Positions 9,725 through 63,743 of a stretch of DNA of 64,000 bases are shown piece after piece. Source of the stretch: a virus. Lineage: Duplodnaviria; Caudoviricetes. Under the pieces are notes generated by a model. It did not search any database, was not told the origin of the DNA, and saw nothing but the letters and a program-made list of their open reading frames with translations. Position 1 is the stretch's first letter. Each line of letters opens with the position of its first letter. The stretch is taken from positions 1 through 64,000 of IMG/VR virus record IMGVR_UViG_3300028603_000002; one strand, written 5' to 3'. Position numbers and translations under genes: made by a program.

Positions 9725-9822
9725 AAAAGAAACACATTTTAGAGGAAGGAACACCTGAATGGGATAACTTAATTGCTGAAACAGATTCAGTTATGGATTT
9801 TTTTAGACAGGCATTGCAATAA
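9721..9822 (+). CDS. Small ORF MKKKHILEEGTPEWDNLIAETDSVMDFFRQALQ (33 aa)
   Basis: GTG start overlaps the upstream TGA; 21 nt are identical to the start of the 6860 gene. Confidence 0.4.
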   Translation: MKKKHILEEGTPEWDNLIAETDSVMDFFRQALQ

Positions 9823-9827
9823 ACAAT

Positions 9828-10379: not shown

Positions 10380-10415
10380 TTTTTCTCGAAATTATACATT
10401 TTTTTATTTTTTGTA

Positions 10416-10426
10416 TATATTTATTA
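10416..10426 (+). promoter_or_regulatory. Putative late-promoter motif TATATTTATTA
   Basis: Exact copy upstream of the scaffold-capsid operon. Confidence 0.6.
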
Positions 10427-10515
10427 TTGAACGTGCTATTAAGTGCGTTTCAATTATCGGTTCAAATAACCGATCCAATCTACAATAACTTGCCATTGAA
10501 GTTAAAATAACTTCA
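10426..10515 (+). promoter_or_regulatory. Structured 5' leader of the scaffold/capsid operon (several hairpins)
   Basis: Stems at 10426-10454, ATCGGTT/AACCGAT 10456-10474, TAACTT/AAGTTA 10486-10504, and an alternative TGAAGTTA/TAACTTCA 10497-10515. Confidence 0.5.
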
Positions 10516-10536
10516 CAGAAATTTGGAAAATTAAGT

Positions 10537-11481: not shown

Positions 11482-11502
11482 AAATTAGAGGATAAACTAA
11501 TA

Positions 11503-42313: not shown

Positions 42314-42468
42314 CTGAATTTTTGAGACATTTCTTTGGATTGTGTGGTGAAGCACATCCAAATATATTAAATATATTCCTGTATTCAACACCAATTGTAT
42401 ATATAGGGATTAAAATAAAATCATACCTAACAAGTTTTAAACATCAAAATCATGATGAAGTTTCATAA
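42310..42468 (+). CDS. Small hypothetical protein (52 aa, MTEFLRHFFGLCGEAHP)
   Basis: ATGA overlap with thioredoxin; H..G.CGE.HP followed by a hydrophobic stretch. Confidence 0.5.
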   Translation: MTEFLRHFFGLCGEAHPNILNIFLYSTPIVYIGIKIKSYLTSFKHQNHDEVS

Positions 42469-43279
42469 GGATAAATTATTAATATCCGAAGATTTTTACA
42501 GCATCCAGGGCGAAGGGATAACAAGTGGCTATCCGTCTTATTTTATCCGTGTTGCAAATTGTAATTTGAATTGTGGCGCGACTCCATCCTTAGTAAATAA
42601 GTTTAAGAAGGGAGAAGAAACTGCTACACCTGGAAATTTTATTGGGGATCTACATAGCCAAGGAAAGGCCTCATGGACATGCGACACGATCCCTGTTTGG
42701 GCACGAGGAGAAAATCATGATTTTGATTATCTAATTAATAGGTGGAAAGAACAAGGAATATATGATGATATAGCAAGTGGTCTAATACACCTTATATGGA
42801 CTGGTGGAGAACCAACACTACCACCACACCAAACAAGCATATTTAATTTTTATAAACATTGGATTAAATTGGATCCTTCTATAAAACCATTTATTGAAAT
42901 TGAAACAAATGGTACATTAGAAATTGATAATTCATTATTTAGTTTATTGGATCAAATTAATTGCAGTCCTAAATTAGGTAATAGTGGAATGAGTCCATCA
43001 CAACGCATAGTTCCAAAAGCTATTGAATGTATAAAGGAACATTACAATTATCAATTTAAGTTTGTAATTAGTACTGAGGATGATATTTTTGAAATGTTTA
43101 ATACATTTATTGAACCATTTAGCATACCTTTAAAGAAAGTAGTTTGCATGCCTGGATTAGATGACCAAAATAATTTCCATGAACGAACTAGATTTGTTAT
43201 GGAAATGGCAAAAAAGTATAAGTTTATTGGATTAACTAGACTCCATGTTTCGGCATGGGATCGTACAACTGGCGTTTAA
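42452..43279 (+). CDS. queE: 7-carboxy-7-deazaguanine synthase (radical SAM)
   Basis: FYSIQGEG, FIR..CNLNC..(35 aa)..CDT, TGGEP, IETNGT, CSPK, KFV, RLH. Confidence 0.92.
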   Translation: MMKFHKDKLLISEDFYSIQGEGITSGYPSYFIRVANCNLNCGATPSLVNKFKKGEETATPGNFIGDLHSQGKASWTCDTIPVWARGENHDFDYLINRWKEQGIYDDIASGLIHLIWTGGEPTLPPHQTSIFNFYKHWIKLDPSIKPFIEIETNGTLEIDNSLFSLLDQINCSPKLGNSGMSPSQRIVPKAIECIKEHYNYQFKFVISTEDDIFEMFNTFIEPFSIPLKKVVCMPGLDDQNNFHERTRFVMEMAKKYKFIGLTRLHVSAWDRTTGV

Positions 43280-43500
43280 TGGTTATCTTATCATGGATTG
43301 CCACTATACTAATCCTCGCAGGTTGTATTGCAAATGCTAGAAAACATCATGTTTTGGCGGTAGTATTATGGACACTTGGTGATATATCATGGATAATTTT
43401 TGATATTTACATTGCTAATTATAGTCACATTGTATTAAGTTCAGCAATAATATTCATAAATTTATATGCTATAAAGAATTTGAAGAACGATACAAACTAG
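43279..43500 (+). CDS. Three-TM membrane protein A (PnuC/SemiSWEET half-transporter-like)
   Basis: ATG 43279 overlaps the queE TAA; three hydrophobic helices; paralogue of the next ORF. Confidence 0.55.
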   Translation: MVILSWIATILILAGCIANARKHHVLAVVLWTLGDISWIIFDIYIANYSHIVLSSAIIFINLYAIKNLKNDTN

Positions 43501-43506
43501 TATTTT

Positions 43507-43749
43507 ATGACTTTATCTACTTTAATGATAATATTTTCTTGGGCTGCAACTGCTCTTGTTTTAATTGCTTTTATAGTTAATGCCCGCAAATATCATAGAC
43601 TTGCAGTGTGGTTGTGGATAATTGGAGATATATTATGGATAATTTTTGATATTTACATTGCTAATTTTAGCCATTTGGTATTAAGTTCTGTAATAATTTT
43701 TATAAATTTATATGCAATATACAACTTAAAAAAAAATGGCCCGAGTTAA
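43507..43749 (+). CDS. Three-TM membrane protein B (paralogue of A)
   Basis: Shares SW.AT.L.L...NARK.H.LAV.LW..GDI.WIIFDIYIAN.SH.VLSS.IIFINLYAI with A. Confidence 0.55.
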   Translation: MTLSTLMIIFSWAATALVLIAFIVNARKYHRLAVWLWIIGDILWIIFDIYIANFSHLVLSSVIIFINLYAIYNLKKNGPS

Positions 43750-44206
43750 TGTCGGTATTGATCCCAAATATTTAGCAGACCAACACTTGATTGCAGAATC
43801 AGTGGAAATAATAATGATTACAGGTGGATTGAAGAAAAATAATTTTAAAATTAAAAGTGCGATACCTCCCTTCTTTAAAATGGGGAAAGGACATATAAAC
43901 TTTTTTAAAAATAAAATTGTTTATTTGAAGAGAAGGTTAGATGAAGTAAATAAAGAAATGGATAATAGAGGGTTTAAAAATAGTACTAATATTGATTTGG
44001 ATGAATATCCTGAAGATTTATTAAATGATTGGGAACCTTCTAAAATTGATTCAGAAATTATTAGAAGGCGAGTTGTTGAAAGATTAATTACTAGAATAAA
44101 GGGTAAACCTGGTTCTAAATTTTATAGATATAATCGAGTATTAATAGGAGATAAAATAGATATCTTCGCAAATGAATTAAATAATTCTAAGTTGTATTTC
44201 GTATGA
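43736..44206 (+). CDS. denV: Pyrimidine-dimer DNA glycosylase (T4 endonuclease V-like)
   Basis: MARVN...LADQHLIAE..EI, IP..FKMGKGHINFF.NK..YL.RR....EM..RGF. Confidence 0.85.
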   Translation: MARVNVGIDPKYLADQHLIAESVEIIMITGGLKKNNFKIKSAIPPFFKMGKGHINFFKNKIVYLKRRLDEVNKEMDNRGFKNSTNIDLDEYPEDLLNDWEPSKIDSEIIRRRVVERLITRIKGKPGSKFYRYNRVLIGDKIDIFANELNNSKLYFV

Positions 44207-44823
44207 TGTTAAAAACAGCAAATTCAAATATAATTCTTGATGATCAAGAACGCAATAAAATGATATTAGATGCGGCAGAAGCATATGGTAATTTTTTAGA
44301 TGCCTTAAAAATAGATTGGAGAAACGACCCTAATTCAGCAGACACTCCATTAAGAGTAGCTAAATCATATGTTAATGATTTAATTGCGGGTTGTTATACA
44401 AACCCACCAAAAATTACAAGATTTCCAAATGATCAACATTATAATGGTATAGTATTTTGCGGTGATATAGATGTAAAATCTTTGTGCAGTCATCATAACC
44501 TCCCATTTTTTGGTAAGGCTTATGTTGCATACATCCCAGATGAAAATGGAACAGTAATTGGTTTAAGTAAATTGAACCGAGTAGTAGAATGGTATGCAAG
44601 AAGACCACAAATACAAGAACAATTAACAACTCAAATACATGATCAATTGAATGATGTCATTTCGGATAATGCAGGTATTGCAGTCATGATTAAAGCAAAG
44701 CATATGTGTTCATGTTTACGGGGGGTGAAACATGACAGTTATATGGTTACTAGTAAATTGAGCGGGGCATTTTATAATGATGCATCTGCCAAAGGTGAAT
44801 TTTTTGAATTTATTAAATCTTAA
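44203..44823 (+). CDS. folE: GTP cyclohydrolase I
   Basis: DTPLRVAK, SLCSHHNLPFFG, GLSKLNR, RRPQIQEQLT, HMCSCLRGV. Confidence 0.96.
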   Translation: MMLKTANSNIILDDQERNKMILDAAEAYGNFLDALKIDWRNDPNSADTPLRVAKSYVNDLIAGCYTNPPKITRFPNDQHYNGIVFCGDIDVKSLCSHHNLPFFGKAYVAYIPDENGTVIGLSKLNRVVEWYARRPQIQEQLTTQIHDQLNDVISDNAGIAVMIKAKHMCSCLRGVKHDSYMVTSKLSGAFYNDASAKGEFFEFIKS

Positions 44824-44826
44824 ACA

Positions 44827-45489
44827 ATGAATAATAAATCAAATAAAATTTCTGTGATATTGTTTACAGGTGGGATGGATTCAACAGTTGTTGCACACCA
44901 ATCTAAAGAAAAGGGTAATGATGTTTATTGTTTAACATTGTCGCAGGGTGGTTTAAATTCAATTGAAGTTGAGAAATCAAAACAACTATGTAGCCATCTG
45001 GGGGTAAAAAGTATAATATATGATATGTCTTCATATTCAGACTTAGTTGATAAACAAGTCACTAATTCATGTGGGTATAGTGAGGGAAATGAAGATGATA
45101 TTGTTAATAATTTTATTCCTAATCGCAATGCAATATTTATACTTTTAGGACATTCTCTATGCCAGAATATAATGAGAAGGAAGTCTGTAGATAAGGGTGA
45201 GGTATTGTTAGGTATGTTAAGCAGCGACCCGGATTATCCTGATTCAAGGCTAGAATTTTTTCAGGGAATGACACGTGTATTAAATATGGGGTCTTTAGAA
45301 GGCACTATTGAAGTAGGTGTTCCTTTATGGGATTACTCAAAATATGAAGTCTATAAGTATTTAAAAGAAAATAAAATACCAATTGAAATGACGTGGAGTT
45401 GTAATGAAAATGAACCTATTCCATGTGGTAAATGTTATGGGTGTACACAAAGAAAAAGACTTAATAAACAATATAATATTCAAATATGA
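44827..45489 (+). CDS. queC: QueC-family ATPase, paralogue 1
   Basis: TGGMDS, FIPNRN, YPDSR, TWSC...CGKCYGC Zn site. Confidence 0.88.
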   Translation: MNNKSNKISVILFTGGMDSTVVAHQSKEKGNDVYCLTLSQGGLNSIEVEKSKQLCSHLGVKSIIYDMSSYSDLVDKQVTNSCGYSEGNEDDIVNNFIPNRNAIFILLGHSLCQNIMRRKSVDKGEVLLGMLSSDPDYPDSRLEFFQGMTRVLNMGSLEGTIEVGVPLWDYSKYEVYKYLKENKIPIEMTWSCNENEPIPCGKCYGCTQRKRLNKQYNIQI

Positions 45490-46148
45490 AAAAGTGCATT
45501 TTATTAGCTTCAGGTGGTTTAGATACTCAAATATCTATGGCAATGTTAAATGAAGATGGATATGACATACTACCTATCTATTTTGATTATGGGCAACAAA
45601 CATCAAAAAAAGAAATTCCTGCATTAAAAAAATATTCCAACAGCATATTAGGTAAAGACCCAGAAATAAGGAAATTGGATAATTATACGAGTGTATTGGA
45701 GAATATGTGGGCATTGTCTGGTGATGTTTCAGAGACATATAATGATAAAGAAAAAATATTCATCCCAGGTAGAAATATCATGTTTTTGTTATTTTCAGCT
45801 GTGATTGGATATTATGATAATCGTTATGAATTAGTATTATCATTGCATAAATCAGATACAATTTCTGGAGATTGTAAAATTGATTTTACAGAAGCATTTC
45901 AACATGCTTTAACATTAGGTATGAGCACACCCAAATATCCAGTAGAATATAAAATCATCGCCCCTTTAAAAGATATGGAGAAATGGGAGGCAATACAGGT
46001 TGGTGCTTCATTAGGTATTGATTTTTCTGAGTCGTGGAGTTGTGATGATAGCAAAGAAGAACATTGCGGAGTATGTCAACAATGTACTGAACGCAAAAAA
46101 ATGTTTAATAAAGCGAATATTACAGATCCTACAATTTATTTACAATGA
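45486..46148 (+). CDS. queC: QueC-family ATPase, paralogue 2 (divergent active-site loop)
   Basis: SGGLDT, FDYGQ, FIPGRN, SGDCK in place of YPDCR, SWSC...CGVCQQC. Confidence 0.85.
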   Translation: MKKCILLASGGLDTQISMAMLNEDGYDILPIYFDYGQQTSKKEIPALKKYSNSILGKDPEIRKLDNYTSVLENMWALSGDVSETYNDKEKIFIPGRNIMFLLFSAVIGYYDNRYELVLSLHKSDTISGDCKIDFTEAFQHALTLGMSTPKYPVEYKIIAPLKDMEKWEAIQVGASLGIDFSESWSCDDSKEEHCGVCQQCTERKKMFNKANITDPTIYLQ

Positions 46149-47113
46149 ATTTAAAGGATAAGTTAGATGAATTTACTTATTTAAATAAGACCGTTAAAAA
46201 TTCTGAAGTTTTTAAGTTGGGTGTTACTGAGTATAATTTATACGCAAAATTTGAATTTCAATTATTTGGTGGTAGTATTAAGGCCCGAGCTGCATATGAA
46301 ATATTGGAAGATGGTATTAATAGGGGTGTAATAAATGAAAATACAACTATAATAGAATCATCTTCTGGTAATTTTGCAATTGCAATGTCGATGTTTTGTA
46401 AAAAATTAGGTTTGAAATTTATTGCGGTTGTTGATATATTAACTAATCCTAATGCTATTAAATTTTTGAAGTTTTTTGCTCATGAGGTTGTTGTTATTAA
46501 CGAAAGAGATGATAGGGGAGGTTTTTTATTAAATCGACTTAAATATATCAAAGAGTATACATCAAACAATAAAAATATATATTGGACAAATCAATATGAA
46601 AATGAATGCAATTATCTTGCACATTACAAATATACCGCGGAAGAAATAATAGAACAAGTACCTAATTTAGATATCATATTCATTGGGGCAGGAACTTGCG
46701 GGACGTTATCAGGGGTATCAAGAAAATTAAAAGAATACAATCCTAAAATCAAGGTTGTTGCAGTTGATGTTGAGGGTTCTTCAATATTTGGGTTGATACC
46801 TAAAACTCGTTTTATCCCAGGTATGGCTTCAAGTATAAAACCACCTTTATTGAATAGAGCTTTGTATGATGAGATAATGATTATAAGCGAGGAAGAAATA
46901 ATTTATTCTTGTTATAGCTTACTTGAAAAACATATGATATTTGGTGGTGGGTCTTGTGGTGCAGTTTTTGCTGCAATTGAAAGATCATTTATATCATCGC
47001 GAATCCCATTAAATTCAAATGTATTATTTTTATGTCCTGACGGTGGTCGGTTTTATATTGATACTATTTATAACAAAGAGTGGGTAAAAGAAACATATAA
47101 TATAGAAATATGA
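46145..47113 (+). CDS. sbnA: SbnA-like PLP enzyme (2,3-diaminopropionate biosynthesis; cysteine synthase fold)
   Basis: YAK.E...GGSIKAR, ESSSGN, GGFLLNR, YWTNQY.N, GTCGT, GSSIFG..RFIPG, PDGGRFYIDTIYN.EW; paired with an SbnB-like gene. Confidence 0.85.
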   Translation: MNLKDKLDEFTYLNKTVKNSEVFKLGVTEYNLYAKFEFQLFGGSIKARAAYEILEDGINRGVINENTTIIESSSGNFAIAMSMFCKKLGLKFIAVVDILTNPNAIKFLKFFAHEVVVINERDDRGGFLLNRLKYIKEYTSNNKNIYWTNQYENECNYLAHYKYTAEEIIEQVPNLDIIFIGAGTCGTLSGVSRKLKEYNPKIKVVAVDVEGSSIFGLIPKTRFIPGMASSIKPPLLNRALYDEIMIISEEEIIYSCYSLLEKHMIFGGGSCGAVFAAIERSFISSRIPLNSNVLFLCPDGGRFYIDTIYNKEWVKETYNIEI

Positions 47114-47985
47114 AAGTTATTACAGAATTACCAGAATATAGTTGGAGTGAATTGATAGATATAATTGGAATGGTAGTTGCAGAAAATGATTTCTGTCAAC
47201 CGATTAAACCATATTTATCATTTCCAGATCCAAGCGCAAGAATTATTGCAATGCCTGCCGCAGTTGGTGGTTCGATAAGAAAAGCAGGTATAAAGTGGAT
47301 ATCTAGTTTCCCAGAAAATCATAATAAGGGATTACCACGAGCTCATTCCGTTTTAATTTTAAATGATTATGACACTGGTGTTCCATTGATTACATTTAAT
47401 ACAGCGGAATTAAGTGCTTTGCGTACCGCCGCTGTAACGGGTTATTTTTTACACCAGTATATGATGTTTAATGAAGATTTAAACTCCCTGGGTATTATTG
47501 GTTATGGTCCTATTGGGCAATGTCATGAAAGTATGATACAGACTATTTTTCCATTTGTGAAAATAATGATTTGTGATCAAAAACATATTACAAATTCAAA
47601 ATGGGAAACATATACAAACTATAAAAATATGATTGGGAATGTTGATGGTATTATTACATGTACTGCAGGATCTGATTCTAATCATTATATTGAAGAAATA
47701 ACTGATAATATAAAAGTATTTTTAAATATATCATTGAGAGATATGAAAATATCAAAATCAAATTTTGAGTATTTTGATAGGTGGGTAGTTGATTCGTGGG
47801 ATGAAGTTAATCGACATGGTACTGATTTTTCTTTATTTGAAAAGAATTACAAATTTAACAATGAACAATGGTCTACACTCTTTGACATGGATGAAACATT
47901 TTTGAAAGGTAAAATATGTTTTAATCCAATGGGTATGGCATGTTTTGACATTGCAATTGCATCATATTTTTTAAATAAATTATAG
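47110..47985 (+). CDS. sbnB: SbnB-like ornithine cyclodeaminase/mu-crystallin family enzyme
   Basis: QPIKPYL, RIIAMPA, GIKWISSFPEN...GLPRA..VLILND..TG.P, SALRTAA, GYGPIG (NAD-binding), ISLRD, FNPMGMA.FDIA. Confidence 0.85.
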   Translation: MKVITELPEYSWSELIDIIGMVVAENDFCQPIKPYLSFPDPSARIIAMPAAVGGSIRKAGIKWISSFPENHNKGLPRAHSVLILNDYDTGVPLITFNTAELSALRTAAVTGYFLHQYMMFNEDLNSLGIIGYGPIGQCHESMIQTIFPFVKIMICDQKHITNSKWETYTNYKNMIGNVDGIITCTAGSDSNHYIEEITDNIKVFLNISLRDMKISKSNFEYFDRWVVDSWDEVNRHGTDFSLFEKNYKFNNEQWSTLFDMDETFLKGKICFNPMGMACFDIAIASYFLNKL

Positions 47986-47990
47986 CAATA

Positions 47991-49166
47991 ATGGATAAAA
48001 AATTTATATATATACCATCTTTAAGTGCAGGTGGATATAAACAATATTTAATAGAAGATAAAATATTAGTGCACTCGGGAATCAACTCAAGATTTTATTC
48101 AGATGATTTTCCTGAAAATTTTAGATACAAAAATTTTCTATTAACTGCCGGACACTTGTATAAAAAGAAAAATATACGAGAAGAAATGGGTTTAGAAGAT
48201 TCATTTGTATTTGGTGATTCAGGTGGTTTCCAGTTTGCCTCTGGTGCAAAGGTCTTTGATAAAACTATAAGGCATGAATTATTTACTTTTTTGGAAGGAA
48301 ATTGTGATATTGCAGCAAATTTAGATATTCCGCCTAAAATGACTTTAGCTTCAAAATTTGATGAATGTCTAGAATTATCAATTGATAATTTTAAATATTT
48401 CTATGATAATCAAAGTGGCAAAGTTAAATACTTAAATATCTTGCATGGAACAACACCGGAACAATTTATCCATTGGTATGATGGTATAAAGGATTTTGAA
48501 TTTTCTGGATGGGCAACTGGTACTGCATTTAAACTTGTTAATTGGATGTATACATTACATACATTGATATCTAACAGAGAATTTGAAAAAATAAGCTGTG
48601 AATATTTTCATATTTTTGGTGTTTCATCACCCTTTGATTTTTTAATAGCAGCAAAGATTCAGGAATGTATTAACAAGTATCATGATGGTAGAGTAACAAT
48701 TACAGTAGATTCAAGTTCACCTGGGTTAGGTGCTGTGTATGGATACTATTATCATCATGTTGATTATAATAAACAATCATTTAAGAAAATGAGGTTTTTT
48801 AAAGGGAACGATATTGTGTACCCAGATGCACCATTACCATGTACAATTGGTTGTCCTGCATGCAAGAATTCCAGCATTAAACATTTTAATACATATGATA
48901 CAATGATGACAAATCATGTTGTATTACACAATACACTTATTTTTGCCAAAGCCGCCGCAGATGCAAATGATTTAATAAAAGTACCAAGTGAGGTATTAGA
49001 AGTGTTAGTTGGTAGAAACATAATAAAAATATTGAAAAGTATTGAATTAATGTTTGTAGAAAATAGTTTGCATGTATATAATAAGTTTAAACAATTATAT
49101 TTGAAGTATGGTGGTGACCATGAAAGTGAGCAAGAAGTAAAACATAATTTTTTTAATTTTAATTGA
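47991..49166 (+). CDS. dpdA: TGT-family transglycosylase (DpdA-like; inserts 7-deazaguanine into DNA)
   Basis: DSGGFQ, LDIPP, ILHG, HIFG, DSSS, Zn site C..GC..C...HN; clustered with que genes and overlapping polB. Confidence 0.85.
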   Translation: MDKKFIYIPSLSAGGYKQYLIEDKILVHSGINSRFYSDDFPENFRYKNFLLTAGHLYKKKNIREEMGLEDSFVFGDSGGFQFASGAKVFDKTIRHELFTFLEGNCDIAANLDIPPKMTLASKFDECLELSIDNFKYFYDNQSGKVKYLNILHGTTPEQFIHWYDGIKDFEFSGWATGTAFKLVNWMYTLHTLISNREFEKISCEYFHIFGVSSPFDFLIAAKIQECINKYHDGRVTITVDSSSPGLGAVYGYYYHHVDYNKQSFKKMRFFKGNDIVYPDAPLPCTIGCPACKNSSIKHFNTYDTMMTNHVVLHNTLIFAKAAADANDLIKVPSEVLEVLVGRNIIKILKSIELMFVENSLHVYNKFKQLYLKYGGDHESEQEVKHNFFNFN

Positions 49167-51640
49167 TGTACCAGAATATATACTACGATAAAGACGAAAA
49201 GATAATGCATCTGTGGGATGATGAGTTGGGGTATAAGAAATTCCCATGGAAGAATTATGCGTTTAAATTAAATCATAATGGTGAATATAAAACATTATTT
49301 GGAGACAAAGTTACCAAAGTTAGAAAATATCATTATAATGATAGTAATATATTTCAATCTGATGTAGATCCTGAGACGGCATATATAGTCGAAAATTATT
49401 TAGACTCTGATGAAATTTCAATAAATCATAGAATATTATGGTATGATATTGAAGTAGAAAAAACAGATTCCTTTAGTACAGCACAAGAAGCAAGAAATAA
49501 AATAATATCAGTTACGCTATGGTGTAATACAGATTCGAAGTTTATAACATTAATTCTTGGAAATAAATTTGATGTTAAATCAGCCAGAGAAAATTTTGAA
49601 TTACATTTCTTTGACAATGAAGAAGATTTATTAGAAGCATTTGTTGATTTGTGGGTATCATATAACCCAACTATCATAAGTGGATGGAACATTGATTATT
49701 TTGATACACCATATACAATTAATAGAATCAAAAAAATACTAGGTGATTATGATGCTAATAGATTATCTCCTATTAAACAGATAAAAATGGAATCCGATGG
49801 TCGGTATAGTATAAAAGGAATTACTAATTTAGATTATTTGTTTCTTTATAAAAGATTCACTCAGAATGAATTACCTAAATATTCACTCGATTATGTAGCA
49901 AAAGAAGAATTGGGAAGAGGCAAGATTGAATATGAAGGATCATTACAGCAATTATATGAAAATAATCCTGAATTATTTATAGAATACAATATTATTGATG
50001 TCGATCTACCAATTGCATTAGATAATAAATTACAATTAATTGAATTAGTTTTAACTATATGCCACGAGTGTCATGTCCCATACAACGCAATATGGCATAC
50101 AAGTCACTATTTAGATGGTGCTGCTATAACATTCTTAAATAGAAAAAATATAGTAGTACCAAATAAGAAATATAATACAGGTGATGGTACCCAAGCTCAA
50201 GGTGCATATGTAAAAGATCCACAGGTTGGTTATTATAAATGGGTATATGATTTAGATTTAAAAGCACTATATCCATCCACAATGCGTTCATTGAATATCT
50301 CCCCAGAGACTAAAGTGGGAAAAATATATAATTGGGACGAGGCGACATTTTTAAAGGATGTCGATATAACATATGATGTAGAGATACAAAATAACAGAGG
50401 AAATATTGATAAAGAAAATCTAAAAACTTTCTTTGAAGAAAATCAAATTTCAATTGCTAGCAATGGTGTATTATATAGTACTAAAAATGTTGGTTTTGTT
50501 CCTGAGATACTTGAATACTGGGATAATGAACGTACTGTATTCAAGGATAAGATGAAAGAGTATAAAAGGAAAGGCGATGACGAAAAAGGAAAATATTATT
50601 ATCTTCGTCAATGGTCAAAAAAGATTATCAGCAATTCATTTTACGGTGTATTGTTGTTAGAAACTTTCAGATTTTATGATAAAGATAATGGCGAAGCAAT
50701 AACATTGACTGGGCAATCGGTTATTAAATTTACAACTAAAGTAGCAAATAGTGTTTATAATAAAGAACTTGGAACTGTAGGGAAAGATTATTGTATTTAT
50801 ACTGACACAGATAGTGTATTTTACACTTCATTGCCGTTTATTGAGAGAGACGGTATTGACCCAGATAATGATGATGAATCAATAAAGAAAACATTAGAAG
50901 TAGCTGATTTGGCACAATCTACAATAAATGCAGCATATGATGAATATGCAAGAAGATTACATAATATTGATAAACATTGTTTTATTATTAAACAAGAAGT
51001 TGTTGCAAGAAGAGCATTATTTGTAGCTAAGAAAAGATACACTCAATGGATGGTATATGAAGAAGGTGTGTCTGTTAATAAAATGGATGTTAAAGGATTA
51101 GATACTGTAAGATCAGATTTCCCGCAATCTTTTAGGACTATTGTAGAGAAGTTATTTGAAATGGTTTTACATGATAAAGAACAAGATGAAGTAGAAAAAT
51201 TAATAGTTGATTTTAAAAAGAAGAATGTAGAGAATGAGTTATATTCACGCATGCGCCCAACTGGTGTAAAAAATATAACTAAATACAAATTTGATAATAG
51301 AGACATATTCCATTTTATGAAAGGAACACCGGTTCATGTAAAAGCAGCATTATCATATAATGATTTCTTAGAATATAAGAATGTAAGGGGATATAAGTCA
51401 ATAACAGATGGTGATAAGATAGTATATGCTTATTTAAGAGATAACCCGTTAAAACTATCCGCAATAGCATTACCAGTGGATGATGTGCCGAAAGAAGTAG
51501 AAGATTTTGTGTATAATTATATTGATGATGCACAAATTTTTGACAGTTTATTAAAAGATAAAATACAAAAAATATTTACTGCCCGCGGATGGGGGCAAAT
51601 AATTTTAAACAATACAATAAAACAATTCTTTGAATTATGA
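49166..51640 (+). CDS. Family B DNA polymerase (T4 gp43-like)
   Basis: Exonuclease YDIE, GWNIDYFD, YSLD, YNIIDV; polymerase DLKALYPS, KIISNSFYG, YTDTDS, KKRY, KGL. ATG 49166 overlaps the dpdA TGA. Confidence 0.96.
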   Translation: MYQNIYYDKDEKIMHLWDDELGYKKFPWKNYAFKLNHNGEYKTLFGDKVTKVRKYHYNDSNIFQSDVDPETAYIVENYLDSDEISINHRILWYDIEVEKTDSFSTAQEARNKIISVTLWCNTDSKFITLILGNKFDVKSARENFELHFFDNEEDLLEAFVDLWVSYNPTIISGWNIDYFDTPYTINRIKKILGDYDANRLSPIKQIKMESDGRYSIKGITNLDYLFLYKRFTQNELPKYSLDYVAKEELGRGKIEYEGSLQQLYENNPELFIEYNIIDVDLPIALDNKLQLIELVLTICHECHVPYNAIWHTSHYLDGAAITFLNRKNIVVPNKKYNTGDGTQAQGAYVKDPQVGYYKWVYDLDLKALYPSTMRSLNISPETKVGKIYNWDEATFLKDVDITYDVEIQNNRGNIDKENLKTFFEENQISIASNGVLYSTKNVGFVPEILEYWDNERTVFKDKMKEYKRKGDDEKGKYYYLRQWSKKIISNSFYGVLLLETFRFYDKDNGEAITLTGQSVIKFTTKVANSVYNKELGTVGKDYCIYTDTDSVFYTSLPFIERDGIDPDNDDESIKKTLEVADLAQSTINAAYDEYARRLHNIDKHCFIIKQEVVARRALFVAKKRYTQWMVYEEGVSVNKMDVKGLDTVRSDFPQSFRTIVEKLFEMVLHDKEQDEVEKLIVDFKKKNVENELYSRMRPTGVKNITKYKFDNRDIFHFMKGTPVHVKAALSYNDFLEYKNVRGYKSITDGDKIVYAYLRDNPLKLSAIALPVDDVPKEVEDFVYNYIDDAQIFDSLLKDKIQKIFTARGWGQIILNNTIKQFFEL

Positions 51641-54395: not shown

Positions 54396-54758
54396 ATGGA
54401 AACAATAGATAAACCATGGGGCTTATATGAGGCAATAATTGCTATTGATAATATCAATCAATTTACATTGAAGCGAATAATAATAGATCCTGAAGAACAT
54501 CCATCGGATCAAAAACATGCACATAGAAATGAAATTTGGATGGTATATGCTGGAGTAGGCACATTGATTACTGAATCAGATGCAGGAAAAAATGTAATAA
54601 TAATTCGTGAAGGAGATGTTGTTCATATTGAAAAAAATACTTGGCATTTAATTATTAGCAGTGGGGATGAACCATTGGAATTCTTTGAAATACAATATGG
54701 TGAGCTGTGCGCCGAGGAGGATATAACGAGAAGATTTGACAAATATGAAAGAGAATAG
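54396..54758 (+). CDS. Cupin, type II phosphomannose isomerase C-terminal-like
   Basis: KPWG.YE, QKHAHRNEIW, WHLI, EIQYG..EEDI.R..D.Y.R. Confidence 0.85.
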   Translation: METIDKPWGLYEAIIAIDNINQFTLKRIIIDPEEHPSDQKHAHRNEIWMVYAGVGTLITESDAGKNVIIIREGDVVHIEKNTWHLIISSGDEPLEFFEIQYGELCAEEDITRRFDKYERE

Positions 54759-56340
54759 AATTAAGAGAGTATTCATACCAACTGCAGGGATAGGTAGTAG
54801 GTTAGGTGAATTGACTATGGTGTTTAACAAGTGTATGTTACCATATAGAGGCAGACCTGCTATACATGCTATTATCCAAGCATATCCTGGTGAATGTGAA
54901 TTTATAATTGCATTGGGTTATGGTGGAGATATAGTGATGGATTATCTAATTACAGTATTCCCTGATAAAAAATTTAAATTTATTTTTATTAAAAAATATG
55001 ACCCATCAGAAGGTGGTAGTTTATTAGAAACATTATATCAATGCAGAGAACATTTCAACCAACCATTTATATTCCACGCAGCAGATAGTATTACACCCAG
55101 AGGATTTAACGTAAATAGTAAACATAATGTCATATTAACCAGTGAAAAATTAAATATTGATAAGTATACGAAATTAACAGTTGGTAAAAGTAAAGTAAAA
55201 GAGATTAAGGTTGATAGATATGATATAGACACTTATATGATAGGTGTTTATTCAATCATAGATTATAAGAAATTTGTTAAAGGCATCAATTATAATTACA
55301 AACATATTACTAATACAAGTGACACAGCTGTATTAGATTATATGATGAATAAAAAATGTAAGTTTGAATATTTACATATCGGTACTGGGTTTTGGGTTGA
55401 TTATGGAGATCCAATACAGGTAGAAAAACATATGAAAGATAATGTATTAGGTCTAAATACATTACCTAAAAAGAATCAAATGATATATCGATATAAAGAT
55501 CAAATTATTAAAGTATTTTCAGAACCATGGAAAAGTAGAAAGTTATATGAAACGTATAAAGTTTTGAAACCTAGTGGATTAATGGTGGATGTAGTCAATT
55601 ATTCAAAATATACATTTATAACAAAATATGCTCCAGGAATTACATTAAGAAAACATTTAGAAGGGAATTTAAATGATATATCTTTCTATAATGTTTTGGA
55701 AAAATTTCATGCTGATAATATAATCAAAAGTACACCTAAACAGAAAAGAGAATTCGTTGAGAAATTCTATATTGAAAAAACAAGAAATCGAGTCGCTGAA
55801 TTTTTAAGAACTGATCCGGTGAATGATATCGTATTAGATGATAAATTTTCGATTAATGGTATTGAAATAGATAGCATAACAGATCTGTTAGATAGGTTAT
55901 TCGAATATTTACGAACAATGGATTTATTTAATGTAACTTGTGGAAAAGTACATGGAGATTTAGTCTTAGATAATATCATTATTAATGGTAATGATATTAA
56001 ATTTATTGATTGGAGAGAAGAAACAATAGAAGGAGTACATGGTTACGGCGATCAAGTATATGATATAGCAAAATTATTACATAGTTGTTGTTTTGATCAT
56101 AATAATTTTAATGATTCACATCTTTTATTAGTAAAGAATCAACATGTAATAGTTCAAATGGTAGGACATAACTCTAAATTAATGAATATCTTAGATAATC
56201 TCCCATTGAAATACTTGCATATTTTAGTTGGGTTGATTTGGTTAAATATGTCACCATTGCATGGTAGGGAATATGGAAGATATTTATTCTTTGCTGGATT
56301 ACATAGAATAGCATTTTGGTTAAACGAAGACGATGAATAG
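54745..56340 (+). CDS. Fusion of an NTP-transferase domain and a choline/aminoglycoside-kinase-like domain
   Basis: N-terminal IPTAGIGSRL...NKCML and W.DYG; C-terminal HGDLVLDNII, FIDWR, GDQVYDIAKL. Confidence 0.8.
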   Translation: MKENRIKRVFIPTAGIGSRLGELTMVFNKCMLPYRGRPAIHAIIQAYPGECEFIIALGYGGDIVMDYLITVFPDKKFKFIFIKKYDPSEGGSLLETLYQCREHFNQPFIFHAADSITPRGFNVNSKHNVILTSEKLNIDKYTKLTVGKSKVKEIKVDRYDIDTYMIGVYSIIDYKKFVKGINYNYKHITNTSDTAVLDYMMNKKCKFEYLHIGTGFWVDYGDPIQVEKHMKDNVLGLNTLPKKNQMIYRYKDQIIKVFSEPWKSRKLYETYKVLKPSGLMVDVVNYSKYTFITKYAPGITLRKHLEGNLNDISFYNVLEKFHADNIIKSTPKQKREFVEKFYIEKTRNRVAEFLRTDPVNDIVLDDKFSINGIEIDSITDLLDRLFEYLRTMDLFNVTCGKVHGDLVLDNIIINGNDIKFIDWREETIEGVHGYGDQVYDIAKLLHSCCFDHNNFNDSHLLLVKNQHVIVQMVGHNSKLMNILDNLPLKYLHILVGLIWLNMSPLHGREYGRYLFFAGLHRIAFWLNEDDE

Positions 56341-56860
56341 AACATTACAAAAAGCGTGCGAAGTATCATTGCATAATGATTTCACACATGTACTTGAATT
56401 TGGAGTATATAAAGGTGGCACATTAAAACAACTATCTAAATTTTATAATTCAACTGTACATGGATTTGATTCTTTTGAAGGTTTGCCTGAAGATTGGGTT
56501 GGTACTAACCACAAGAAAGGAGGCATGAGTGCTGGTGGAAGAATACCTGAAATACCAAATTGTAAGATCTGGAAGGGTTGGTTTGAGAATACTATTCCAG
56601 AATACTTAAAAGAGTATAAAGGTCCAATTAAACTATTGCATATTGATTGTGATTTATATAGTAGCACAAAAACAATATTAGAACTATTAAATGATAATAT
56701 AGTTAGTGGTACAATATTATGTTTTGATGAATGGTATTATAATCATAATCCAAAGTACAAAGACCACGAACAGAAAGCATTTTTTGAATGGATAGGAGAT
56801 AGGGAATTTGTATTGGAATTACCAATTGAAGATGAACGACAAATAGTACATATATTATGA
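56333..56860 (+). CDS. TylF/MycF-type sugar O-methyltransferase
   Basis: LEFGVYKGGT, GFDSFEGLPEDW, KGWF..T, HIDCDLYSST, FDE. Confidence 0.88.
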   Translation: MNRTLQKACEVSLHNDFTHVLEFGVYKGGTLKQLSKFYNSTVHGFDSFEGLPEDWVGTNHKKGGMSAGGRIPEIPNCKIWKGWFENTIPEYLKEYKGPIKLLHIDCDLYSSTKTILELLNDNIVSGTILCFDEWYYNHNPKYKDHEQKAFFEWIGDREFVLELPIEDERQIVHIL

Positions 56861-57840
56861 TATATATAGGATTGATGAACCCTATAATAACTAGGGCAGT
56901 TTTAAATTTCAATAAAAAACACAATGAATATCTAGGCTTGATAATCAGTACATCCCAGTTTAGTCATTGTGGAGGATATTATCCATCAAAATATGATTTT
57001 AATTACACCTTGAAATTAATAAAAGATATTGATTCACATATTAGAATTGGCAGAGATCATTATGATTCATTGGATAATGATTTACATTGCAGCGATATTG
57101 GAATAGTTGATTATATACATATTGATCCAATTTATGACAGCAATGGCAAGAAAAATGATATCATCGGTTATACGTCAGATGTTATTTATATGATGAACGA
57201 ACTAGTAAAATTTGATAAGAAGATTAAATTTGAAATCGGCACTGAACAAAGATTATTGAAATTTAGTATACAAGATTTTGATTATTTCTTAAGTAATATT
57301 CAACAAGTATACGGAGAGGATAAGTTAGAGTACATAGTAGTTCAAAGCAATGAAGATTTATCATATAACAATTTATTGACACAACAAGCTCCTGAAATTA
57401 CTTACGATGATTCTGCTAGATATCATCAAATGATAACAATAGCTAAAGAATACTATCCCAATGTTAAATTGAAACAACACAACCAAGATTTTGTCCCTGC
57501 CAATGATATAAGAAATAAATTGAACCTTAATTTTGGTGGATCTAATTTAGATGCTATAAATTTAGGTCCACAAATAGCTCAAATGTTTAATGAGATTGTG
57601 TATGAGGAATTAAACCCAACCCGGAGAATAGAAGTAGTTAGAAGAATACTTAAGAATGAAGCATTTAAAAAGTGGTGTACATATAATAATATAATGGATA
57701 CAACACCAGAAAAAATGTTTACTTTATTTGCACATTATATTTATAAGGAATTAGATTATTCAATAGATCACAATAGCATATTTGAAAAATTTTATCCTGA
57801 ATTTGAAAAATTTATTTTAGAAAGATTGCCTGGAGGATAA
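56857..57840 (+). CDS. GatZ/KbaZ (tagatose-phosphate epimerase/aldolase)-like TIM barrel
   Basis: SQ...GGY, RDH, IHIDP, FEIGTE, VVQS, KQHNQDF, AINLGPQ. Confidence 0.65.
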   Translation: MIYIGLMNPIITRAVLNFNKKHNEYLGLIISTSQFSHCGGYYPSKYDFNYTLKLIKDIDSHIRIGRDHYDSLDNDLHCSDIGIVDYIHIDPIYDSNGKKNDIIGYTSDVIYMMNELVKFDKKIKFEIGTEQRLLKFSIQDFDYFLSNIQQVYGEDKLEYIVVQSNEDLSYNNLLTQQAPEITYDDSARYHQMITIAKEYYPNVKLKQHNQDFVPANDIRNKLNLNFGGSNLDAINLGPQIAQMFNEIVYEELNPTRRIEVVRRILKNEAFKKWCTYNNIMDTTPEKMFTLFAHYIYKELDYSIDHNSIFEKFYPEFEKFILERLPGG

Positions 57841-58232: not shown

Positions 58233-58457
58233 ATGGACATGAAGAAGGGAAGATTATACAAAAAGAAAAAAGAGCTGAATGATGCTTATTATATTTTCCT
58301 TGGAGATAGCGGTTTACCTGAGTTAGGGACGTTTTTATGTGTTGTCCCTATTAATGATACCCGATTAAGAATAGTCTCGGTAGAACTAAGGAAAGCAAGT
58401 GAAATGAAGATTGTATCAGAAGAAGAATTTCGTAACTATATAGATGTATCTTGGTAA
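58233..58457 (+). CDS. Hypothetical protein
   Basis: 74 aa; TAATG overlap with queD. Confidence 0.45.
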   Translation: MDMKKGRLYKKKKELNDAYYIFLGDSGLPELGTFLCVVPINDTRLRIVSVELRKASEMKIVSEEEFRNYIDVSW

Positions 58458-59011
58458 TGTGGTTAATTGATAAAACATTTGAATTTGATTATGGTCATAG
58501 AGTTTGGACTCAAAAACTAAATTCTGACTTTAGTATTGATAATAGATGTGTATGTAGACATTTACACGGTCACCGAGGAAAAGTACATGTTTATTTAAAA
58601 TCAGATACTTTAGATGAAACTGGGATGGTTACTGATTTTAAACATTTGAATTGGTTTAAGAAATTCTTAGATGATGTGTTGGATCATAAAATGATTCTTG
58701 ATATGGATGATCCAACATTATTTTTATTGTATTCATTAGCTACTGAACATTATTTAATAGAAAATAAAGAATTTAATTATTATACAGTAGATATAGCAAA
58801 ATTAGAAACTGATTTAGGTGATACTTTTACTGATGCTGAAATGGAATTATATGAGGGATTAGTAATAGTTAACTTTGTACCGACATCAGAAAACTTAGCA
58901 AAGTGGTTAGCAGAAATAACGTCTAAGAAAATGAAAGAAATGGGGGTGAATGTAAGTCATATTGAATTCTTTGAAACTCCAAAAAGTAGAAGTACATATT
59001 ATATTGATTAA
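58457..59011 (+). CDS. queD: 6-carboxy-5,6,7,8-tetrahydropterin synthase
   Basis: FDYGHR, CRHLHGH, GMVTDF, LDH, PTSENLA, ETP; long internal insertion. Confidence 0.92.
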   Translation: MWLIDKTFEFDYGHRVWTQKLNSDFSIDNRCVCRHLHGHRGKVHVYLKSDTLDETGMVTDFKHLNWFKKFLDDVLDHKMILDMDDPTLFLLYSLATEHYLIENKEFNYYTVDIAKLETDLGDTFTDAEMELYEGLVIVNFVPTSENLAKWLAEITSKKMKEMGVNVSHIEFFETPKSRSTYYID

Positions 59012-61741: not shown

Positions 61742-62275
61742 ATGAGGAATAAAGTTGTATGTGAATATAATTGTTTAATGTTAGATGTTGAATTAAACAA
61801 TTGGTCTAATTGGGAAGATATAATAACACCAACCGACATCTACATTTCTGATACCATTCCTGGTTTAGAACCAACTCCACATATCACTCTTCTGCATGGA
61901 ATTGAACCTAATACACGATTAAATGAATTTGGTCATATACTACCACGAGCAAATGAATATAATGTCGAAGTAGGTGGATTACAATATTTTAACAAGTCTA
62001 CATATGATGTATTATTTTTAAAAGTAAAATGTTCTTTAATTAATGAAGTTAATTTAAAATTAAAAGAAACAATAAAATACCACCCCACCTTCCCAGTATA
62101 TACTCCACATATAACAATAGCATATTTAAAACCTGGAAAGGCAAATAAGTATGTATATAGCATACCTATAGTTAATAAACATATAAAGGCAATAAATTAT
62201 ACATATTCAACAACAAAAAATAGACCATACAGATTTAAGGAGTTTTATGGAACAACAACTACCAAAGTTAATTAA
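61742..62275 (+). CDS. 2H phosphoesterase, Acb1/T4 gp57B-like
   Basis: Two HxT motifs, PHITLLHG and PHITIAYLKPG. Confidence 0.75.
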   Translation: MRNKVVCEYNCLMLDVELNNWSNWEDIITPTDIYISDTIPGLEPTPHITLLHGIEPNTRLNEFGHILPRANEYNVEVGGLQYFNKSTYDVLFLKVKCSLINEVNLKLKETIKYHPTFPVYTPHITIAYLKPGKANKYVYSIPIVNKHIKAINYTYSTTKNRPYRFKEFYGTTTTKVN

Positions 62276-63743
62276 GGTCAACAGAGATAGACCAAAAAAG
62301 AAAAAAATACTATTATTAAGCGATGACTTAACAATGCATTCTGGCATTGCTACAATGTCAAAAGAATTTGTAATAGGTACAGCCGAACATTATGATTGGG
62401 TTCAGATAGCAGCAGGAATAGATCATCCTAAACACGGGCAATTTGAAGATTTTTCAAATAGTATAAATGAATTATTAGGAATTGATCATTCATATGTAAA
62501 ATTGTATTATCACAATGGATATGGCAATCCTCCTGTATTGCGTGAAATAATTGCATTAGAGAAACCAGATTTAATTTTACATTTTACAGACCCTAGATTC
62601 TGGGGGTGGTTGTATTCAATTGAAGATGAGATTAGGAAGTATTATAAGATACCAATTGCTTATTATAATATTTGGGATGCACCACCAGCTCCATTATGGA
62701 ACTATCCATTCTATAAGTCATGTGATTTAATAATGAATATTAGTAAACAAACACATGCACTAACAAAGATAGTTCTTAGGGATGAATATGCTGATTTAGA
62801 TGAAGGTGAAACAAAGAAAAAGAATACAGATGTTCTATTATCTTATGTTCCTCATGGGATAAATGAAAAAATGTTTTATCCTATCAATGAAGATTCAGAA
62901 GTTTATAAGGATTATTTAAAATTTAAGGAAGAATTCTATTCTAAGAATCCAAATGCTAATTTTATTGTATTTTGGAATAACAGGAATGCTGCAAGAAAAC
63001 AACCAGCGGATGTGATATTAGGATTCAAATATTTTTGTGATAAATTGTCAAAGGCAGATGCAAAGAAATGTGTATTATTAATGCATACTCAAATTATTGA
63101 TATGCACGGTACTGATTTAATGTCTATTAAACAAGATTTATGTCCTGATTATAATGTTATATTCTCAGATCATCCAGTTGATACTCATGTAATGAATTTC
63201 TTTTACAATGTATCGGATGTTACTGTCAACATTGCTAATAATGAAGGGTTTGGATTATCTGGTGCTGAATCATTAATGTCAGGAACAATGATAATTAATA
63301 ATGTTACTGGTGGATTACAGGATCAATGTGGTTTCTTAGATGAGAAACTTAACCCGATTAAAGTAACAAAAGAATTTGTATCAAATCATACTGGAAAATA
63401 TAAGAATCATGGATCGTGGGCTAGACCAATTTATCCAACATCCAGATCATTACAAGGATCTCCTCCTACACCATACATATTCAATGATAAAATTACATTT
63501 ACTGATTTAGCAGATGCTTTATTTGATGTATATGAGTACGGTCCTGAAGCTAGAAAAGTTCGTGGATTGGAAGGAAGGGAGTTTGTACTATCAAAAGAGT
63601 CGGGGATGAGTGCAACAGAAATGTGTAATAGAATGAAGAAATCAATTGATTATTTATTTGATACATGGAAACCAAATGAGAAATGGATTGTTAAACGCGC
63701 TAAGAAATATGTAGCACCAAAAAATATGGGAATAGTTATATGA
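62247..63743 (+). CDS. GT4 (GT-B) glycosyltransferase
   Basis: ILLLSDD...SG, VPHG, NRNAARK, NEGFGLSGAE, TGGLQDQ. Confidence 0.9.
   Translation: MEQQLPKLIKVNRDRPKKKKILLLSDDLTMHSGIATMSKEFVIGTAEHYDWVQIAAGIDHPKHGQFEDFSNSINELLGIDHSYVKLYYHNGYGNPPVLREIIALEKPDLILHFTDPRFWGWLYSIEDEIRKYYKIPIAYYNIWDAPPAPLWNYPFYKSCDLIMNISKQTHALTKIVLRDEYADLDEGETKKKNTDVLLSYVPHGINEKMFYPINEDSEVYKDYLKFKEEFYSKNPNANFIVFWNNRNAARKQPADVILGFKYFCDKLSKADAKKCVLLMHTQIIDMHGTDLMSIKQDLCPDYNVIFSDHPVDTHVMNFFYNVSDVTVNIANNEGFGLSGAESLMSGTMIINNVTGGLQDQCGFLDEKLNPIKVTKEFVSNHTGKYKNHGSWARPIYPTSRSLQGSPPTPYIFNDKITFTDLADALFDVYEYGPEARKVRGLEGREFVLSKESGMSATEMCNRMKKSIDYLFDTWKPNEKWIVKRAKKYVAPKNMGIVI

Follow-up and report, generated by a model that had tools for sequence, protein, structure and literature searches.

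The phage genome IMGVR_UViG_3300028603_000002 measures 171,908 bp and is complete by CheckV (100%) and by its direct terminal repeats, and its first 64 kb (the 64,000-nucleotide stretch analyzed here, referred to as the window) contains a cluster in which genes for 7-deazaguanine synthesis surround two QueC-family paralogs and a gene pair resembling sbnA and sbnB of L-2,3-diaminopropionate (Dap) biosynthesis, followed by the gene of a DpdA-like transglycosylase (Table 1). FolE, QueD, and QueE convert GTP to 7-carboxy-7-deazaguanine (CDG), and all three are encoded in the window. The phage is T4-like, with a GC content of about 30% and one coding strand for all genes. Its closest cultured relative by family B DNA polymerase (PolB) is Microcystis phage Mel-JY01, at an identity of only 40%, and a megablast search of GenBank phages with the locus gave zero matches.

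Table 1 Genes of the deazaguanine locus and of nearby regions, with window positions and the matches on which the assignments rest
Feature and predicted role	Position	Strand	Basis
QueE-like radical SAM enzyme, 6-carboxy-tetrahydropterin (CPH4) to CDG	42452..43279	+	phrog_2076 5.7e-42; weak QueE NCBIfam matches
orf81, orf80, and DenV-like pyrimidine-dimer glycosylase; outside the proposed pathway	43255..44206	+	DenV-like: PF03013 9.5e-13, phrog_1183
orf80 (80 aa)	43507..43749		weak likeness to inner-membrane family Imp-YgjV, 17.9 bits
FolE, GTP cyclohydrolase I, first step to CDG	44203..44823	+	PF01227 6.7e-49; phrog_2197 7.2e-59
QueC1, non-canonical QueC-family PP-loop ATPase	44827..45489	+	PF06508 132 bits
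QueC2, non-canonical QueC-family PP-loop ATPase	45486..46148	+	PF06508 116 bits
SbnA, pyridoxal 5'-phosphate (PLP)-dependent synthase, O-phosphoserine + glutamate to N-(1-amino-1-carboxyl-2-ethyl)-glutamic acid (ACEGA)	46145..47113	+	TIGR03945 354.2 bits
SbnB, NAD+-dependent dehydrogenase, ACEGA to Dap + 2-oxoglutarate	47110..47985	+	TIGR03944 198.8 bits
DpdA-like TGT-superfamily transglycosylase (391 aa), candidate for guanine exchange in DNA	47991..49166	+	homologs with PF01702; AlphaFold2 model and Foldseek
PolB, TTG start	49163..51640	+	phrog_262 2.5e-180
Cupin (mannose-6-phosphate-isomerase-like), 534-aa protein with weak APH-type phosphotransferase match, TylF-like methyltransferase, and unassigned ORFs, between clamp loader and QueD	54396..57840		
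QueD, 6-carboxy-tetrahydropterin synthase	58451/58457..59011	+	PF01242 4.7e-29; phrog_2389 1.7e-34
Weak glycosyltransferase-like ORF	62247..63743		

The genes for FolE, QueC1, QueC2, SbnA, SbnB, the DpdA-like protein, and PolB form a translationally coupled run, with queE upstream and queD downstream; PolB is a coupled neighbor that stands outside the pathway. Every junction from the DenV-like gene through PolB is either a 4-nt overlap or a 3- to 5-nt gap. The sbnA gene overlaps both QueC2 and sbnB by 4 nt, a 5-nt gap separates sbnB from the dpdA-like gene, and the stop of the latter overlaps the TTG start of PolB by 4 nt. A first-pass annotation, made from the letters of the window alone, had placed queE, folE, two queC genes, sbnA, sbnB, and a dpdA-like gene in this order, overlapping or 3 to 5 nt apart from folE to dpdA, with queD at 58457. 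All of these genes are present, the junction coordinates agree with the spacing, and the in-frame ATG at 58457 is the likely start of queD. The three open reading frames (ORFs) between queE and folE (orf81, orf80, and the DenV-like glycosylase gene) had gone unmentioned.

The arrangement recurs in assemblies made independently of the virus record. The Logan assembly of the run from which the genome probably came, a landfill metagenome, contains a single 54,090-bp contig that spans positions 43637 to 52000 with zero mismatches. Identical contigs from a second landfill study span the QueC2/SbnA (46093 to 46422) and SbnB/DpdA (47784 to 48570) junctions, and the SbnB/DpdA junction is also spanned by a contig from a soil run (47898 to 48349). 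Since independent assemblies from three studies bridge the junctions, the locus is not an assembly chimera. Short joints in the sequencing-run search, with sides of 21 to 23 letters and low likeness, were treated as noise, and soil, sludge, and rhizosphere runs with small shares were given no weight as indicators of habitat. No RNA dataset carrying the locus was found among the sequencing runs listed, and promoter and terminator scans of the locus performed no better than scans of shuffled sequence.

Profile searches, phylogeny, most key residues, and modelled folds indicate that SbnA and SbnB truly belong to the Dap type and not to the CysK and ornithine cyclodeaminase (OCD) types, and the names given to them in the first-pass annotation can stand. 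SbnA passes the cut-off of its equivalog TIGR03945 (354.2 against 349.95 bits), and the next family, cysKM, reaches 163 bits. Its top match in the PDB is Staphylococcus aureus SbnA (215 bits), with CmnB next and CysK-type proteins at about 110 bits. In a maximum-likelihood tree, the eight phage-type SbnA proteins form one clade (support 100/100) nested within the SbnA of Bacillales, with B. weihaiensis as sister (99/89) and the CysK-like outgroups outside. This nesting, together with the low GC content, may hint at a gene source in the Bacillota or at a Bacillota host. Phage SbnA keeps the PLP lysine (K46), the active-site loop SSSGN, and R131 and Y151, the equivalents of S. aureus Arg132 and Tyr152. 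These two residues and Ser185 are the three that have been tied to O-phosphoserine (OPS) selection by SbnA. The Ser185 equivalent is glycine (Gly183) throughout the phage clade; among 120 homologs, 104 have serine and 13 have glycine at this position.

SbnB falls under the cut-off of TIGR03944 (198.8 against 326.9 bits), with the runner-up family 119 bits lower at 79.6 bits. Its best PDB match by sequence is S. aureus SbnB, than which it is about 40 residues shorter and with whose Rossmann GxGxxG motif (GCGLIG) its GYGPIG aligns. A Foldseek search with an AlphaFold2 model (23 sequences, pLDDT 85.5) placed S. aureus SbnB at ranks 1 to 4 (E 4e-21, TM 0.78) and CmnK, the Dap-forming enzyme of capreomycin, at rank 7. 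Production of 2,3-diaminobutyrate (Dab) in place of Dap was considered and ruled out. Routes to Dab depend on a threonine kinase together with an argininosuccinate-lyase-like enzyme and have no SbnB-type partner (PMC10906522). Because the partner here is of the SbnB type and the complete genome encodes no GHMP kinase, and so no threonine kinase, the pair is best read as a Dap pathway. The enzyme identities are well established by these comparisons, and we infer from them that the pair makes Dap.

The two QueC paralogs are only 26% identical to each other, and both depart from canonical QueC. They score below the cut-off of the QueC equivalog TIGR00364 (150.3 bits), with 122.4 bits for QueC1 and 98.0 bits for QueC2. 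An alignment and mutagenesis study from 2026 defined the canonical signature as SGGxDS, YxQxHxxE, VPxRN, YPDC, and a Zn motif, and showed Y35, R99, Y131, and Y189 to be essential (PMC13329287). QueC1 has TGGMDS, IPNRN, and YPDS, lacks the Tyr, Gln, and His of YxQxHxxE (Y35, Q37, and H39), and has Asn in place of Y189. In QueC2, as in all eight members of its subfamily, the motifs are SGGLDT and IPGRN, DYGQ is kept, the Tyr-Pro of YPDC (Y131 and P132) is replaced or deleted (SG-DCK), and Y189 is Asp. Both paralogs keep R99 and the Zn-site cysteines. The single QueC of Campylobacter phage CP220, whose DNA contains the deoxynucleoside of 7-amido-7-deazaguanine (dADG), is near-canonical.

Two members of the QueC family, QatC (PMC13329287) and Cap9 of type IV CBASS, a cyclic-oligonucleotide-based antiphage signaling system, activate CDG with AMP and join it to an amine that is not ammonia. 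The phage paralogs match Cap9 in the PDB with 30 and 53 bits and reach 21 bits against the QatC profile NF041925 (cut-off 280), and no gene for a Cap9 or QatC partner substrate (CD-NTase or QatB-like) was seen at the locus. The phage QueCs would share the chemistry of Cap9 and QatC but, by sequence, are not members of those families. Both also match the QueC part of Gat-QueC PHROGs (phrog_1550 and phrog_10428). In the Cap9-CdnD structure, the Y-x-D-C Tyr and the RN-motif Arg sandwich the deazaguanine, which is hydrogen-bonded to the Asp. This triad is complete in QueC1, whereas QueC2 lacks the Tyr. The earlier proposal that one QueC uses Dap where ammonia would normally react is chemically realistic in light of Cap9 and QatC. 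However, since QueC1 keeps the triad, QueC2 lacks its Tyr, and both are non-canonical, the residues do not single out which paralog would be the Dap ligase.

We searched the complete genome for other genes that might act on Dap or on deazaguanines. It contains no QueF, no PF06508 gene beyond QueC1 and QueC2, no further tRNA-guanine transglycosylase (TGT) gene, no NRPS-independent siderophore (NIS) synthetase (IucA/IucC), no nonribosomal peptide synthetase (NRPS) adenylation (AMP-binding) or Condensation domain, and no ATP-grasp_4 domain. The absence of queF and of NRPS and NIS siderophore synthetases, first noted for the window, therefore holds for the complete genome as well. Judged by domain content, the QueC paralogs are the sole candidate carboxylate-amine ligases, and the genome appears to encode no other Dap consumer.

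The gene upstream of PolB encodes a protein that has no Pfam or NCBIfam match of its own. Its metagenomic homologs number in the hundreds, and PF01702 is present in those of about 40% identity. The top 50 Foldseek matches of its AlphaFold2 model (pLDDT 89.1) are TGT and archaeal TGT (ArcTGT) structures, with a probability of 1.0 and TM scores of 0.52 to 0.56. The motif GDSGGFQ, an invariant Asp240 in D-S-S-S-P, and a Zn site (C-x4-C-x2-C...H) are present. By modelled fold and context, the protein is a DpdA-like transglycosylase that falls outside the named DpdA subfamilies, as judged by BLAST searches and by a profile comparison that covered DpdA3. Membership in DpdA3 was unsupported, as the family profile finds nothing in CP220, a carrier of DpdA3. 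From the fold and motifs, and from the conserved FolE, QueE, QueD, and PolB context in dozens of phage loci, we infer that this enzyme exchanges guanine in DNA.

The loop after an invariant G-W (window 48507-48530, residues 173 to 180) reads GWATGTAF in this protein and GWAAGMAF in the closest homolog; relatives without QueC2 and SbnAB have GWAIGGPQ, GWCIGSSR, or GWCIGGAQ. Its position suggests a possible equivalence to GGLAVG, the loop of TGT that sets substrate specificity. In GenBank, unannotated distant homologs of the protein (24% to 26% identity, labelled "hypothetical") occur in jumbo Pseudomonas phages of the PA5oct group and in Sinorhizobium phage Phosso (for example, MK797984.1, 223021-224001).

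The QueC paralogs belong to very small subfamilies. QueC2 has eight members in a database of 5.8 billion clusters, seen only with the phage SbnA clade, and QueC1 has one close representative (P0254, 49% identity) among 1.84 billion, the next being at 36%. Neither subfamily was found in GenBank phages, IMG/VR, or GTDB. The QueC2 profile retrieved only a QueC of 25% identity from IMG/VR and only a Marinicella QueC of about 30% identity from GTDB, and the QueC1 profile retrieved nothing from IMG/VR. Co-location of genes on other contigs was deduced from matching contig fingerprints (longest contig and contig count) and from tree congruence, with gene order not read directly. On this basis, QueC2 is paired with phage-type SbnA as P0245 with P0122 (longest contig 10,302 bp; contig counts for QueC2/SbnA 1/1), P0248 with P0125 (104,989 bp; 4/4), P0247 with P0126 (163,672 bp; 12/12), P0242 with P0253 (8,674 bp; 7/5), and P0243 with the partial P0251 (2,288 bp; 1/1). 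The last fingerprint is so short that adjacency of the two genes is implied. A QueC1-type protein (P0254) and a QueC2-type protein (P0244) share a 2,083-bp contig by the same measure, and, across the paired contigs, the SbnA tree agrees with the QueC2 tree. These matches indicate at least five further contigs on which QueC2 accompanies phage-type SbnA, and one on which it accompanies QueC1.

Our preferred reading is that a Dap-conjugated 7-deazaguanine ends up in the DNA of this phage, and we rate its chances as about even. FolE, QueD, and QueE would supply CDG from GTP, while SbnA would join O-phosphoserine to glutamate and SbnB would oxidatively release Dap. One QueC paralog, acting by analogy with Cap9 and QatC, would adenylate the CDG carboxylate, which an amine of Dap would then attack in the place of ammonia to give a CDG-Dap amide. 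The other paralog could re-activate the amide with ATP, yielding an amidine or a carboxy-imidazoline, or else supply ADG or 7-cyano-7-deazaguanine (preQ0). The TGT-fold DpdA-like enzyme would finally swap the conjugated base for guanine in DNA. The amide is the simplest product, although it is unproven, and amide, amidine, and imidazoline are indistinguishable here. The computed masses of the amide are 280.092 Da for the base and 397.147 for the [M+H]+ ion of the deoxynucleoside; the corresponding ions of the amidine and the imidazoline would lie at 396.163 and 379.136. The mass shifts calculated in the first-pass annotation (+86.05 and +68.04 relative to CDG, +104.06 relative to preQ0, and a base of 262.08 Da) were recomputed and agree. 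Ligation could take place on the free base before insertion or on CDG already in DNA (dCDG), and the estimate covers both orders.

A Dap-conjugated base is favored because of the gene identities, their tight coupling, the lack of another Dap consumer, the module-specific and non-canonical QueCs, the TGT fold of the DpdA-like protein, the recurrence of QueC2 with phage-type SbnA and with QueC1, and a parallel cassette in two related contigs (L151 and L152). Given the precedent of Cap9 and QatC and the coupling of a nitrogen donor to QueC in Gat-QueC, a QueC that takes Dap would therefore be a small step from known chemistry. The idea that Dap is the side-chain donor, which came from the first-pass annotation, gains from the Dap-type SbnAB, the TGT fold, the lack of another consumer, and the sbnA-QueC2 linkage, but the product itself is unproven. 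That annotation knew of no phage deazaguanine bearing Dap, and our literature search likewise found no paper linking SbnA or Dap with deazaguanines or DpdA. Such a cluster is not mentioned in the 2023 survey of phage deazaguanines or in the 2026 survey of the QueC family. A DNA base of this kind, with an amino-acid side chain, would be the most likely product of the locus and is not known to have been described before.

Several observations weigh against this reading. In tblastn searches with E values up to 5, the DpdA-like family did not reach characterized DpdA and found uncharacterized jumbo-phage proteins only, and DNA as its substrate is assumed from context. The Gly at the Ser185 position suggests that substrate use by phage SbnA might differ. 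QueC2, the paralog next to sbnA, lacks the stacking Tyr and QueC1 lacks the essential Y35-type Tyr, and either, to judge from these replacements, might bind a substrate other than CDG. The co-occurrence of QueC2 and SbnA rests on fingerprints and not on read synteny. None of the 79 related viral loci with a DpdA-like gene has sbnAB within 10 kb, and none of the 84 SbnA loci retrieved by profile scans (4 from IMG/VR and 80 from JGI metagenomes, the latter being ordinary bacterial-type sbnAB loci) has deazaguanine genes. Scans of viral contigs with the single SbnA and SbnB sequences also returned nothing. The recurrence of a queC-queC-sbnA-sbnB-dpdA order, suggested earlier as a check, is accordingly borne out in part: the sbnA-QueC2 and QueC1-QueC2 linkages recur by fingerprint and congruent trees, and sbnAB is absent from the 79 DpdA-like viral loci. 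The combination of sbnAB with deazaguanine genes is a rare add-on.

That rarity also fits the main rival explanation, in which SbnAB is an auxiliary metabolic pair that provides Dap for an end other than DNA, such as a siderophore, an antibiotic, or the metabolism of the host, while the QueCs make ordinary ADG or preQ0 and the base in the DNA is one already known. Auxiliary metabolic genes are common in phages, and SbnAB is elsewhere tied to siderophore and NRPS pathways. However, the genome has no synthetase that would consume Dap, and each QueC is missing residues that preQ0 synthesis has been shown to require. The pair is also embedded between QueC2 and the dpdA-like gene by the 4-nt overlap and 5-nt gap described above, and QueC2 appears to co-occur with phage-type SbnA on the other contigs and with no other SbnA. 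Because of this tight coupling and co-inheritance with QueC2, the explanation is weakened, and we regard it as unlikely.

The order of events within the preferred reading can also be argued. The DpdA-like enzyme may insert CDG, with one or both QueC paralogs then attaching Dap to dCDG in the DNA. Most relatives of the locus encode FolE, QueE, and a DpdA-like protein but no QueC within 10 kb, which makes CDG or one of its close derivatives a possible ancestral substrate of the transglycosylase family. Insertion of CDG by DpdA3, with tailoring later, has been proposed (PMC10516641). QueC2, without the Tyr that stacks the free base in Cap9, could accommodate a base presented in DNA. On the other hand, the characterized QueC-family enzymes (QueC, Cap9, and QatC) all use the free base, and the difference between GWATGTAF and the loops GWAIGGPQ and GWCIGSSR of relatives without QueC2 and SbnAB hints that a different base is inserted here. 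We consider this order a minor possibility, contained in the estimate for the Dap-conjugated base and not additional to it.

It is improbable, in our view, that the SbnA- and SbnB-like pair makes an amine or amino acid other than Dap that is then conjugated to the deazaguanine. The Gly at the Ser185 position, where 104 of the 120 homologs have the Ser credited with OPS selection, and a short SbnB that falls under its equivalog cut-off would fit such a divergence. Yet SbnA passes its own cut-off and conserves R132, Y152, the PLP Lys, and the SSSGN loop, and Gly also occupies this position in 13 other SbnA-family homologs. The fold of SbnB is nearest to SbnB and CmnK, both Dap-forming, and the threonine kinase of the Dab route is missing. 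Still less credible is a Cap9/Cap10-like deazaguanylation of protein instead of DNA, for example in counter-defense or regulation: both QueCs do match Cap9, and type IV CBASS does pair QueC-like and TGT-like proteins on a protein N-terminus, but the QatC match is far under its cut-off, and neither a CD-NTase nor a QatB-like partner was seen. The best structural matches of the DpdA-like protein are nucleic-acid transglycosylases, and dozens of T4-like phages have its gene next to PolB and the full set of CDG genes, as is the pattern of DNA-modifying phages. SbnAB would, moreover, be left without a role.

The related loci suggest how the cassette between FolE and DpdA-like genes may vary. Most of the 79 (L085-L150) have FolE, QueE, PolB, and sometimes QueD, and from their lack of QueC within 10 kb one would expect many uncultured T4-like phages, as a large group, to have DNA of the dCDG or dDG type. 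In two IMG/VR phage contigs (L151:7777-11215 and, alike, L152), the order is DenV, FolE, X, QueC-like, DpdA-like, and PolB, where X resembles class-V aminotransferases (335 aa; PhnW/AepZ-like, 81.6 bits, far under the cut-off) and the QueC-like protein is very divergent (TIGR00364, 57 bits). The slot between FolE and DpdA may there hold a second, different pairing of an amine supplier with a QueC-type ligase. A separate contig (L157:8751-13956) has three tandem DpdA-like paralogs (8751-9974, 9938-11107, and 11101-12258) beside FolE and QueC.

A further conjecture about the Dap-conjugated base is one that we hold only tentatively and judge unlikely as a whole. The two ATP-dependent half-reactions of QueC may be split between the paralogs, one ligating Dap to CDG and the other re-activating the amide, so that the adjacent unreacted amine of Dap closes a carboxy-imidazoline ring (base 262.081 Da) or an amidine is formed, and the FolE-DpdA slot may be a swap site for cassettes that combine an amine-supplying PLP enzyme with a QueC-like ligase. 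If the first part is true, the DNA would contain a zwitterionic deazaguanine bearing a heterocycle; if the second is true, there would be a whole family of DNA bases in which amines or amino acids are conjugated to deazaguanine.

Other features of the window lie apart from this pathway or concern its individual enzymes. The cysteine spacing of the QueE-like enzyme is odd, C37-x3-C41-x35-C77 (window 42560-42688), compared with C-x3-C-x2-C or C-x14-C-x2-C. Homologs of orf80 lie near polymerase and deazaguanine genes in 24 of the 79 related loci. The cupin, phosphotransferase-like, and methyltransferase genes upstream of queD, along with the glycosyltransferase-like ORF near the end of the window, may form a second, sugar- or methyl-based modification module or a surface-related one (Table 1).

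Phage deazaguanine systems built on FolE, QueD, QueE, QueC, and DpdA1-4 comprise eight known pathways, whose products are dPreQ0, dADG, dG+, dPreQ1, mdPreQ1, fdPreQ1, dDG, and dCDG. The locus described here resembles them in its phage-encoded full CDG pathway, in the adjoining TGT-superfamily transglycosylase, and in its location among the replication genes of a large genome of myovirus type; its transglycosylase, like DpdA3, has diverged too far to be recognized by Pfam. It differs in having two module-specific, non-canonical QueCs where the known systems have one QueC or Gat-QueC, in the embedded SbnA/SbnB, which is reported in none of the eight, and in a transglycosylase family with no BLAST or HMM relation to characterized DpdA within the bounds tested. 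The eight known 7-deazaguanine DNA bases have small one-carbon side chains or none. Apart from queD, the proposed pathway fits within some 7 kb of contiguous genes.

The closest precedent for the chemistry is that of Cap9 and QatC, with which the phage paralogs would share adenylation of the CDG carboxylate and attack by a primary amine other than ammonia to form an amide; the P-loop, RN motif, and Zn site of Cap9 are kept. Unlike in those systems, where a protein N-terminus reacts, the nucleophile would be a free amino acid made by neighboring genes; the genes belong to a DNA-modification operon of a phage and not to bacterial defense, and the sequence likeness is at the family level only. 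If the reading is correct, ligation of amines to CDG on the QueC scaffold, an ability discovered recently and so far a feature of bacterial defense, is also used by phages for offense. Gat-QueC of the phage 9g-type dG+ pathways likewise combines a QueC-type domain with a dedicated nitrogen-donor module. There, however, the donor is a fused glutaminase delivering ammonia, whereas here it would be separate SbnA and SbnB genes for a diamino acid.

In gene pairing, order, families, fold, and most key residues, phage SbnA/SbnB resemble the pair of staphyloferrin B synthesis in S. aureus as well as CmnB/CmnK, VioB/VioK, and SulH/SulG. They differ from these in being virus-encoded, in the absence of siderophore or NRPS machinery, in the replacement of Ser185 by Gly, and in the shorter SbnB. 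A Dap-conjugated base in phage DNA would be the first role for Dap biosynthesis outside siderophores and antibiotics.

Amino-acid-derived hypermodified bases of phages include alpha-glutamylthymine, putrescinylthymine, 5-NeOmdU, and the momylation of phage Mu, which are built on 5-hydroxymethyl pyrimidines or on adenine N6 by kinases, PLP enzymes, or radical enzymes. We know of none that is built on a 7-deazaguanine scaffold or by a QueC-type ligase. The predicted base would be like these in its attached amino acid or amine and in serving restriction evasion. If present, it would give the amino-acid hypermodified pyrimidines their first purine counterpart and place a charged, bulky group in the major groove that could affect evasion of restriction and CRISPR, polymerase and sequencing behavior, and the development of DNA chemistry tools.

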